A stretch of DNA of 39,407 nt from Escherichia coli. Lineage in GTDB: Bacteria; Pseudomonadota; Gammaproteobacteria; Enterobacterales; Enterobacteriaceae. This document shows, piece by piece, positions 11,189 through 12,445 of this stretch. The notes beneath the pieces were generated by a model that made no database searches, had not been told where the DNA came from, and worked only from the letters and a program-made list of their open reading frames with translations. Where the stretch lies: assembly GCF_016903815.1 (NCBI RefSeq), contig NZ_CP069970.1; one strand, written 5' to 3'. The translations under genes and the position numbers were made by a program. Every line of letters starts with the position of its first letter. The stretch's first letter is position 1.

Positions 11189-12445
11189 TTAATTACTGAC
11201 AGTTTTGGGTTTTGGGAAACTGAACAGTAAATCACGATAGTACTCGTATTGTTTCTGGCGCAACTCGATTTCACGCGGAAGACCTTCGGTAATCGAATTT
11301 GTTAAGACGTCAAATTTGTCGAGAGTCGCTGCGATTCTGGCTTGTTCGTTATAAGATTCCTCCGGATTACCGGGGCATGGGAAGGGGATTTTAATGTCTT
11401 TGAGCATCGGTTTAGTTAGCTGGGGTATGCCTGCCTCAGGGATTTTGTAATTATTCTCAATGGTTTTCATGAAGTAATAAGCGTACTTCAAGTTTAATTT
11501 AATTTTTGGCGTCAAGACCAGCAGTCGCACTATCGGAAAGAATGGTCTACTTCTATAGCTAGTCCATCCAATAGTACCTCTTGCAGATATGGTGAGACTC
11601 GGTTTCTCAATCTTGGCTCTGTCAGTCCATCCATATAGTGATTTATTACCTATACCGTTTGATAAAACGGGGATGCTGAATTCCTCGGTCTCAAATTCGG
11701 ATAAGGCATCTTTTGGTGCATCGCCGCCTGCAACAATGTCAAAAACATCATCCAATGCCTTCCACTCAACCTCACCCTCTTTAAAACTCAACAACTGGTC
11801 GCGATAGTAGTTGTACTGTTTTTTACGCATGGTAAGCTCAGCGGTAAGCTCAGCGGTAAGCTCAGCGGTAAGTGCAGTAAATTTATCCAGAATCCGAACG
11901 ATTTCAGACTGGATGGCAAGGGATTTTTCCGGGGTATCTGGGCAGGGTAATGGGATTTTGAATCTTCCCATTACGGCTGAGTTCAAGTTGTTAATGGTTG
12001 AGCTATTCAACATTTCATCAAGATATTTTTGGAAAATATCACTTGTTAAAACGTGAAATAAATAACGTGGATTTAATTTTTCATCGCATCTGACGACCCC
12101 CATAAATCCGCCAAAGTAGTAGTCAATATCAGATTCTATGTAAGCAACTTTACCGACATGTTCACGGCTACCACTTGCTGCGCTAATTAGAATGTCGTTC
12201 TTATATAGCTTTTGCGAACTCTTTACTTTGGTGTCGAACCTCACCACCTTGACATCATTTAAATTTAAACAATTATTAGACAGCGTGATATTGTTAGCGC
12301 GAAGCACTTTATAGCCTTGACCATCCGCGCTTTCACTCGATTTGCTATAAATTAAACCACGTACATATTTTGCGACTTCTCCGAGAGTCTTCCACTCAAC
12401 CTCAACCCCATCCAGCAATTTTTCCAGATAACTCATCTCGCTCAT
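11189..12445 (-). CDS. hsdS: type I restriction-modification specificity subunit (type IC-like)
   Basis: 418 aa with two target-recognition-domain-like halves and a central [12 protein letters not shown] repeat. Start overlaps the hsdM stop (ATGA). Confidence 0.85.
11831..11878. repeat. tandem 12-bp repeat GGTAAGCTCAGC x3 plus one degenerate copy, encoding (AELT)3 in hsdS
   Basis: Seen directly; lies in the central conserved region of hsdS. Confidence 0.9.

Follow-up and report, generated by a model that had tools for sequence, protein, structure and literature searches.

Three TAEL repeats in a type IC HsdS of a P1-like phage-plasmid and natural alleles that differ from it by whole repeat units

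The TAEL repeat-number mechanism of type IC restriction-modification systems has been textbook knowledge since 1989. A 12-bp sequence occurs twice in hsdS of EcoR124I, which recognizes GAA N6 RTCG, and three times in that of EcoR124II, which recognizes GAA N7 RTCG (PMC3874165, section 25). EcoDXXI and EcoPrrI have three copies as well, and the change in copy number has been ascribed to unequal crossing-over (PMC3874165). The invariant in these enzymes is the distance D between the methylated adenines, which amounts to 7 bp in EcoR124I and to 8 bp in EcoR124II, EcoDXXI and EcoPrrI, the 8-bp members having four more residues than EcoR124I (PMC12707154, Table 1). The site of a truncated EcoR124I derivative is written GAA(N7)TTC and the distance is still 7 bp (PMC12707154); the written spacer therefore depends on the half-sites. 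For NgoAV, PacBio methylomes assigned GACN6TGC to one LEAT repeat and GACN7TGC to two (PMC6789123). According to the literature, the central conserved region (CR1) and the C-terminal conserved region (CR2) of HsdS pair as antiparallel helices of a coiled coil, by which the spacing of the two recognition domains and their relative twist are set; one additional TAEL contributes about 0.34 nm and 36 degrees, equal to one base pair in the spacing of the target. Loenen et al. (PMC3874165) called it unclear how a turn gained by only one of the helices fits into the coiled coil.

The stretch of Escherichia coli DNA analyzed here (the window; 39,407 nucleotides of contig NZ_CP069970.1) contains an hsd cassette whose specificity gene carries such a repeat. 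The features of hsdS and of its surroundings that are needed in the following are, with all coordinates given for the window:

12442..14004, minus strand: hsdM, 520 aa, intact (TIGR00497 hsdM, 3.9e-196)
11189..12445, minus strand: hsdS, 418 aa, type IC specificity subunit, its start overlapping the hsdM stop
11966..12385, minus strand: target-recognition domain 1, residues 21-160, by sequence comparison
11762..11965, minus strand: central conserved region CR1, residues 161-228, a long helix with the TAEL repeats, by near-identity to EcoR124I
11366..11761, minus strand: target-recognition domain 2, residues 229-360, by sequence comparison
11192..11365, minus strand: C-terminal conserved region CR2, residues 361-418, the partner helix of CR1, by alignment
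11831..11872, minus strand: perfect 12-base tandem tract of 3.5 copies, by Tandem Repeats Finder and direct reading
11834..11869, minus strand: codons of TAEL x3, HsdS residues 193-204, by translation
11873..11878, minus strand: degenerate end of a fourth unit, ACT GCA, coding for Thr-Ala of FTAL, by direct reading

Judged by 100% DNA identity, hsdS (11189..12445) corresponds to RefSeq WP_072196859.1. Tandem Repeats Finder reported the tract at 11831..11872 with a period of 12, 3.5 copies, 100% matches and a score of 84, the highest in the window. On the plus strand, units of GGTAAGCTCAGC lie at 11831-11842, 11843-11854 and 11855-11866. The third is followed by GGTAAG (11867-11872) and TGCAGT (11873-11878), which jointly make up a fourth unit with 9/12 matches. 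An earlier reading of the same DNA, made from the sequence alone (the sequence-only reading), had described 11831-11878 as three perfect copies plus a degenerate fourth, and this description was exact. On the coding strand the perfect tract reads CTT, three times ACCGCTGAGCTT, then ACC. Since the unit comprises 12 bases, all changes in copy number stay in frame. The FTAL formed by the degenerate end is kept in EcoR124I too, as seen in the alignment. Two further exact copies of a 12-mer would be expected by chance in 39.4 kb with a probability of about 1e-10, and the unit was found nowhere else in the window. An antisense open reading frame overlapping the repeat (11811..12056, plus strand) was set aside, as it was without support as a gene.

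The conserved parts of the system closely resemble EcoR124I. A PDB search aligned HsdS with EcoR124I HsdS (7bst_A, 404 aa) in three almost identical blocks, residues 1-34, 161-263 and 361-418, and passed over both variable recognition domains. CR1 is near-identical to residues 140-236 of EcoR124I HsdS save one extra TAEL, and the alignment of the central block has a single gap, which corresponds exactly to one TAEL, as 7bst_A has two. With three TAEL, CR1 (KIP...SF) and CR2 are both 59 residues long and can be aligned without gaps, giving 31 identities. HsdM aligned with EcoR124 HsdM (7bst_D) over residues 1-520 against 1-520 at 1155.6 bits, and HsdR, in the intact form found in sister plasmids, aligned with EcoR124I HsdR (2w00_A) over 1-1038 at 2255 bits. 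In EcoR124II hsdS, the unit deleted with published primers (PMC10644984) has exactly the sequence ACCGCTGAGCTT. In the window itself HsdR is present but split and probably not functional. As HsdM, the HsdR of sister plasmids and the three conserved regions of HsdS are near-identical to those of EcoR124I and the DNA unit is that of EcoR124II, the system is firmly placed in type IC (the EcoR124 family) by sequence comparison, while a type I family is formally defined by complementation, that is, by exchange of subunits (PMC12707154). The EcoR124-type assignment of the sequence-only reading was thereby borne out by the conserved regions of HsdS, by HsdM and by the HsdR of the relatives; its account of the TAEL-count rule likewise agrees with PMC3874165 and with Table 1 of PMC12707154.

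We consider it highly probable that the tract is the TAEL repeat of the CR1 helix in a type IC HsdS carried by a P1-like phage-plasmid, that it sets the target spacing and that it slips by whole units. HsdS proteins of 410 aa (P0122), 414 aa (P0121) and 418 aa (the window) have one, two and three copies, respectively, and are otherwise identical. An hsdS identical to that of the window (100%) was found on 22 plasmids of about 96 kb from complete E. coli genomes, all with three copies (for example p50579417_1, CP033882), and the complete plasmid p1002-1 of Z1002 (CP021203) carries the window hsdS minus exactly one unit. In a gene-position index the three-copy form accounted for 697 blocks, against 72 for the two-copy form, and the one-copy form of the window allele for two contigs, both of them drafts, one being DABHXJ010000017.1 of GCA_013025885.1. 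A four-copy version of the window allele was not seen in searches of E. coli genomes, which were non-exhaustive.

Such forms would also be expected if the repeat were static and simply inherited, the one-, two- and three-copy forms being old alleles shuffled by recombination with no active hotspot in this lineage. The window allele has three copies on each of its 22 complete plasmids, which come from several countries and hosts, and the same holds for repeated assemblies of strains 405, 2020N21-110 and 2022N21-074. Moreover, recombination does shuffle hsdS, which is accompanied by hsdM and hsdR with 48 to 160 substitutions between cassettes: beyond the identical cassettes described below, three copies occur at a divergence of 48 (the window) and of 160 substitutions (L014, L017), and two copies at a divergence of 66 (L008, one cassette). 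This explanation is nevertheless improbable in our view. Cassettes of 6,048 bp spanning hsdMSR with one copy (L006), two copies (L001, L007, L009) and three copies (L002, L005, L013, L015, L018) showed zero substitutions between them, and the 9.2-kb loci of L006, L007, L001 and L002 were identical except for the repeat units. Old alleles would have accumulated linked substitutions, so their complete absence argues against them. A sister allele on P1-like plasmids, which shares domain 1, has a different domain 2 and has AGC instead of ACC after the repeats, is present as a two-copy hsdS (WP_029401415.1, L012) and a three-copy hsdS (WP_260240996.1, L011), the DNA of hsdS being otherwise the same, and one-copy forms of it are P0030 and P0055. 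By repeating the one-to-three series without other change, the sister allele indicates that copy-number events are recurrent. The instability that had been predicted for the repeat was thus found, in the form of one-, two- and three-copy HsdS on cassettes without any other difference and in the series of the sister allele.

Assembly could in principle collapse or expand a short tandem repeat and thereby create differences in copy number. The one-copy form comes from draft contigs, as stated above, and the tract, 18 to 42 bases long, exceeds the smallest k-mers of some assemblers. On the other hand, two- and three-copy forms are both found in complete, closed plasmids (Z1002 p1002-1 against the 22 others, and L012 against L011), the tract is far below any read length, and all the differences are exact whole units. 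We regard an artifact of this kind as extremely unlikely, and slippage by whole units remains the reading that we follow below.

A wider view was obtained from a sample of E. coli type IC hsdS (60 of 1360 matching records, evenly spread), which contained about 25 three-copy and about 27 two-copy genes, one with four copies and one with five. Chromosomal alleles of E. coli with four copies (L004, strain Esc29, WP_452124678.1) and five copies (L003, strain YPE12, WP_057080931.1) extend the range to 1-5. A scan of IMG/VR gave a single contig, with three copies, too few for a distribution. The proposal that two copies are the ancestral state was withdrawn, both states being found on several cassette haplotypes and the three-copy form being abundant. 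A count of 0/120 three-copy proteins among the top cluster representatives was discarded as a frequency, because that protein collection is without the exact 418-aa protein and three-copy alleles would wrongly look absent there. Finally, ranking by BLAST with a synthetic four-copy query was uninformative, as overlapping pieces were joined; a native query and the spread sample were used instead.

The recognition domains of the window HsdS are both unrelated to those of EcoR124I in the PDB alignment, and the half-sites should therefore not be GAA and RTCG. Among characterized proteins, the PDB search matched domain 1 to the first domain of EcoKI only, with 30% identity, which is too distant for an inference of the half-site. 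Beyond this domain, the PDB search with the recognition domains gave two structures of unknown specificity. A characterized enzyme sharing either recognition domain was not found in this PDB search. More than 40 other HsdS proteins contain domain 1 at 100% identity, and the same is true of domain 2, in either case with differing partners; both domains behave as modules. Domain 1 is found at the C-terminal position in P0022, P0040, P0047, P0048 and P0081 and twice in P0002; the duplication of domain 1 in P0002 would predict a palindromic target. Domain-2-like modules occupy both positions in P0005, from Proteus mirabilis.

The sequence-only reading had held that recognition domains unrelated to those of EcoR124 would void the repeat rule. 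The domains are indeed unrelated, yet the rule belongs to the conserved helix: it is independent of the domains, as it holds for EcoDXXI, EcoPrrI and EcoR124/EcoDXXI hybrids, all with other domains (PMC3874165). For the three-copy allele of the window, 8 bp between the methylated adenines can thus safely be predicted by the published rule, one more than for its two-copy sibling. The label 'N7' would hold for it only with half-sites arranged as in EcoR124II. Copy number might also change without a clean change in specificity, with several spacings being tolerated or the enzyme being inactive at one or three copies. Counted in favor of this is a 1991 article by Gubler and Bickle (EMBO J 10:951), whose title reportedly refers to promiscuous protein-DNA interactions, and also the unclear fit of a one-helix turn into the coiled coil noted by Loenen et al. 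(PMC3874165). Every tested case (EcoR124I and EcoR124II, the EcoR124/EcoDXXI hybrids and the NgoAV alleles) showed 1 bp per repeat, however, and the abundance of the three-copy allele in the index (697 against 72 blocks) argues that this allele is functional. An unclean change of this kind is therefore very unlikely in our judgment, slightly more so than a static repeat.

If the repeat sets the spacing, as we propose, the three-copy allele would have a bipartite site 1 bp wider than that of its two-copy sibling and 2 bp wider than that of its one-copy sibling, and the three alleles would share the same half-sites at spacings n, n+1 and n+2. Copy number would shift in 12-base steps by replication slippage or unequal crossing-over in the 42-base perfect tract. 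After a misalignment by 12 bases, 30 bases would still pair perfectly with three copies, 18 with two copies and only 6 with one copy; with so little pairing, the one-copy state should be the most stable.

The tract is not a phase-variation device in the usual (phasevarion) sense. The 12-base unit is in frame, in place of a frame-shifting ON/OFF simple-sequence tract; as for the other arrangement of such systems, inverted silent hsdS copies served by a recombinase, a second hsdS was not found in the window by tblastn, and a recombinase gene was not found inside the hsd cassette, which consists of hsdM, hsdS and hsdR only. Heterogeneity within a strain was not seen in the repeated assemblies of the three strains named above. 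The tract changes recurrently, yet without a rate visible between assemblies of one strain, and is not hypervariable. The switching by repeat number that had been expected is borne out by the one-, two- and three-copy alleles across assemblies, but it is not fast, the repeated assemblies of the same strain all having three copies.

The two genes adjoining hsdS differ in their condition. Intact hsdM has a 12-base tandem duplication at its 3' end (12527..12549, minus strand), with TGCTGAGCTGAA present x1.9 on the coding strand; it encodes ...AELNAELK... in the C-terminal helix of HsdM and resembles the AEL of the HsdS repeat. The third gene of the cassette is:

7949..11067, minus strand: hsdR, broken into three open reading frames (10225..11067, 8589..10280 and 7949..8629)

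The breaks result from single-base insertions at 10269 (an extra C) and 8625 (an extra A), neither of which lies in a homopolymer run. Relative to the 24 closest E. coli records, hsdR carries 48 substitutions, many of them spaced at multiples of three, unlike hsdM and hsdS, which are identical to those of the same 24 records. The hsdR allele was absent from 5,426 complete E. coli genomes, the best identity being 98.4%, and hsdR is intact in sister plasmids, where it encodes 1038 aa. The hsdR of the window is a recombinant allele and either a pseudogene or affected by sequencing errors. L016 has an insertion of about 2.2 kb within hsdR, so that hsdR may have been lost repeatedly.

If the insertions are real, the element of the window probably only methylates, through an M2S methyltransferase, and does not restrict. 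With hsdR frameshifted twice, any switch here would alter methylation and not restriction, and the term 'restriction specificity' is not strictly applicable to the copy in the window because its hsdR is broken. After a switch, the cell's own DNA would be without the new methylation. Type IC systems tolerate unmethylated own DNA through assembly-controlled restriction alleviation (PMC12707154), and for the methylating system predicted in the window the issue of self-restriction after a switch would not arise.

The window belongs to a P1-like phage-plasmid (Punavirus), in which the hsd cassette adjoins phd/doc; annotation with PHROGs gave phd/doc, pdcB, lpa, pacA, pacB and ant to the right of the cassette. 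On both sides, the flanks of the cassette are about 92.6% identical to P1 and P7 and 99.5% identical to phage vB_EcoM-673R5. The hsd cassette is absent from P1 at the corresponding position, and the relatives are plasmids that are circular and about 96 kb in size. Earlier work has already mentioned type I systems in P1-like elements (PMC6906374; bioRxiv 10.1101/2025.09.12.675607). Three-copy hsdS also lies next to metG-like, mrp/ParA-like, humD-like and hot-like genes in L014 (GCA_023100415.1) and L017 (GCA_030732685.1); this segment could be a chromosomally integrated or a chimeric P1-like segment. The index for three-copy hsdS also lists one contig of more than 1 Mb.

Outside the hsd cassette, the following features were seen, the first three of them as a cluster beside it:

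2367..4505, minus strand: PDC-S06 candidate ATPase (PADLOC, 3e-286)
4970..5965, plus strand: CBASS cyclase (4e-152)
5969..6901, plus strand: CBASS 4TM effector (1e-165)
7038..7541, minus strand: fragment of an IS1-family transposase (NCBIfam, 8e-42)
28064..34831, minus strand: open reading frame of 2255 aa, candidate for P1 DarB (size and context only)

The PDC-S06 candidate and the two-gene CBASS form a defense cluster at 2367..6901, in place of which the sister plasmids of 96 kb carry other genes, one HAD_PNKP-like and the other pmgS. The IS1 fragment lies where the hsd cassette and the CBASS/PDC-S06 cluster meet, immediately downstream of the broken hsdR, and may mark the rearrangement that joined the two. 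The 2255-aa open reading frame at 28064..34831 has the size of P1 DarB, an anti-restriction protein by which the DNA of P1 is shielded against type I enzymes. If the open reading frame is DarB, the element would carry a type I system plus a defense against type I systems.

In summary, the locus presents a known mechanism in a new allele, and no concept is changed. Its main value is as natural material, namely the series of one, two and three copies on cassettes without other difference, the sister series and the four- and five-copy chromosomal alleles. With these alleles, the correspondence of one repeat to one base pair could be tested on more than two against three copies, and this bears on the question about the coiled coil raised by Loenen et al. 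(PMC3874165). The allele series further indicate that repeat slippage, and with it a predicted drift of specificity, occurs in type I systems of P1-like phage-plasmids, and such drift bears on gene flow between lineages with these clinically common elements. More speculatively, TAEL copy number could be a fast-evolving lineage mark for P1-like phage-plasmids, a proposal that we hold to be unlikely. If it were true, siblings with one, two and three copies on a backbone without other differences would differ in methylation and, given an intact hsdR, would each restrict DNA of the others; one slip of 12 bases would be enough to open a separate group, defined by incompatibility or kin discrimination, within elements that also bear a Dar anti-restriction system. 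The natural E. coli series of one to five copies would in that case be a ready-made ruler for one-helix turns in the coiled coil.

Among the named systems with which the locus can be compared is NgoAV of Neisseria gonorrhoeae, a type IC-like system whose LEAT is the same repeat in another register and which has natural repeat-number variants as well. The mapping in NgoAV differs from that of the window family, one repeat giving N6 and two giving N7, and NgoAV also varies by a poly-G frameshift that truncates HsdS, to which nothing in the window is comparable. EcoDXXI and EcoPrrI (type IC, N7, 8 bp) combine three TAEL, as in the window, with recognition domains that differ from the EcoR124 pair; the hsd locus of EcoPrrI also includes prrC, an anticodon nuclease gene that is not present in the window. 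EcoR124I (7BST chain A), with the site GAA(N6)RTCG, shares the family and the conserved helices with the window. It has two TAEL, as does the two-copy sibling P0121 (Z1002 p1002-1); its CR1 is four residues shorter than its CR2, and its recognition domains differ from those of the window. From EcoR124II (EcoR124/3), with the site GAA(N7)RTCG, the window differs in its unrelated recognition domains, in its frameshifted hsdR and in its carrier, a P1-like phage-plasmid instead of the conjugative plasmid R124. The residue after the repeats is Thr (ACC) in the window and Asn (AAC) in EcoR124II, by which the perfect tract of the window gains two bases (42 against 40). Both systems have three TAEL through the identical ACCGCTGAGCTT unit, the order hsdM-hsdS-hsdR with hsdS overlapping the hsdM stop, and near-identical HsdM and N-terminal, central and C-terminal conserved regions of HsdS; HsdR is near-identical in the intact form of the sister plasmids.
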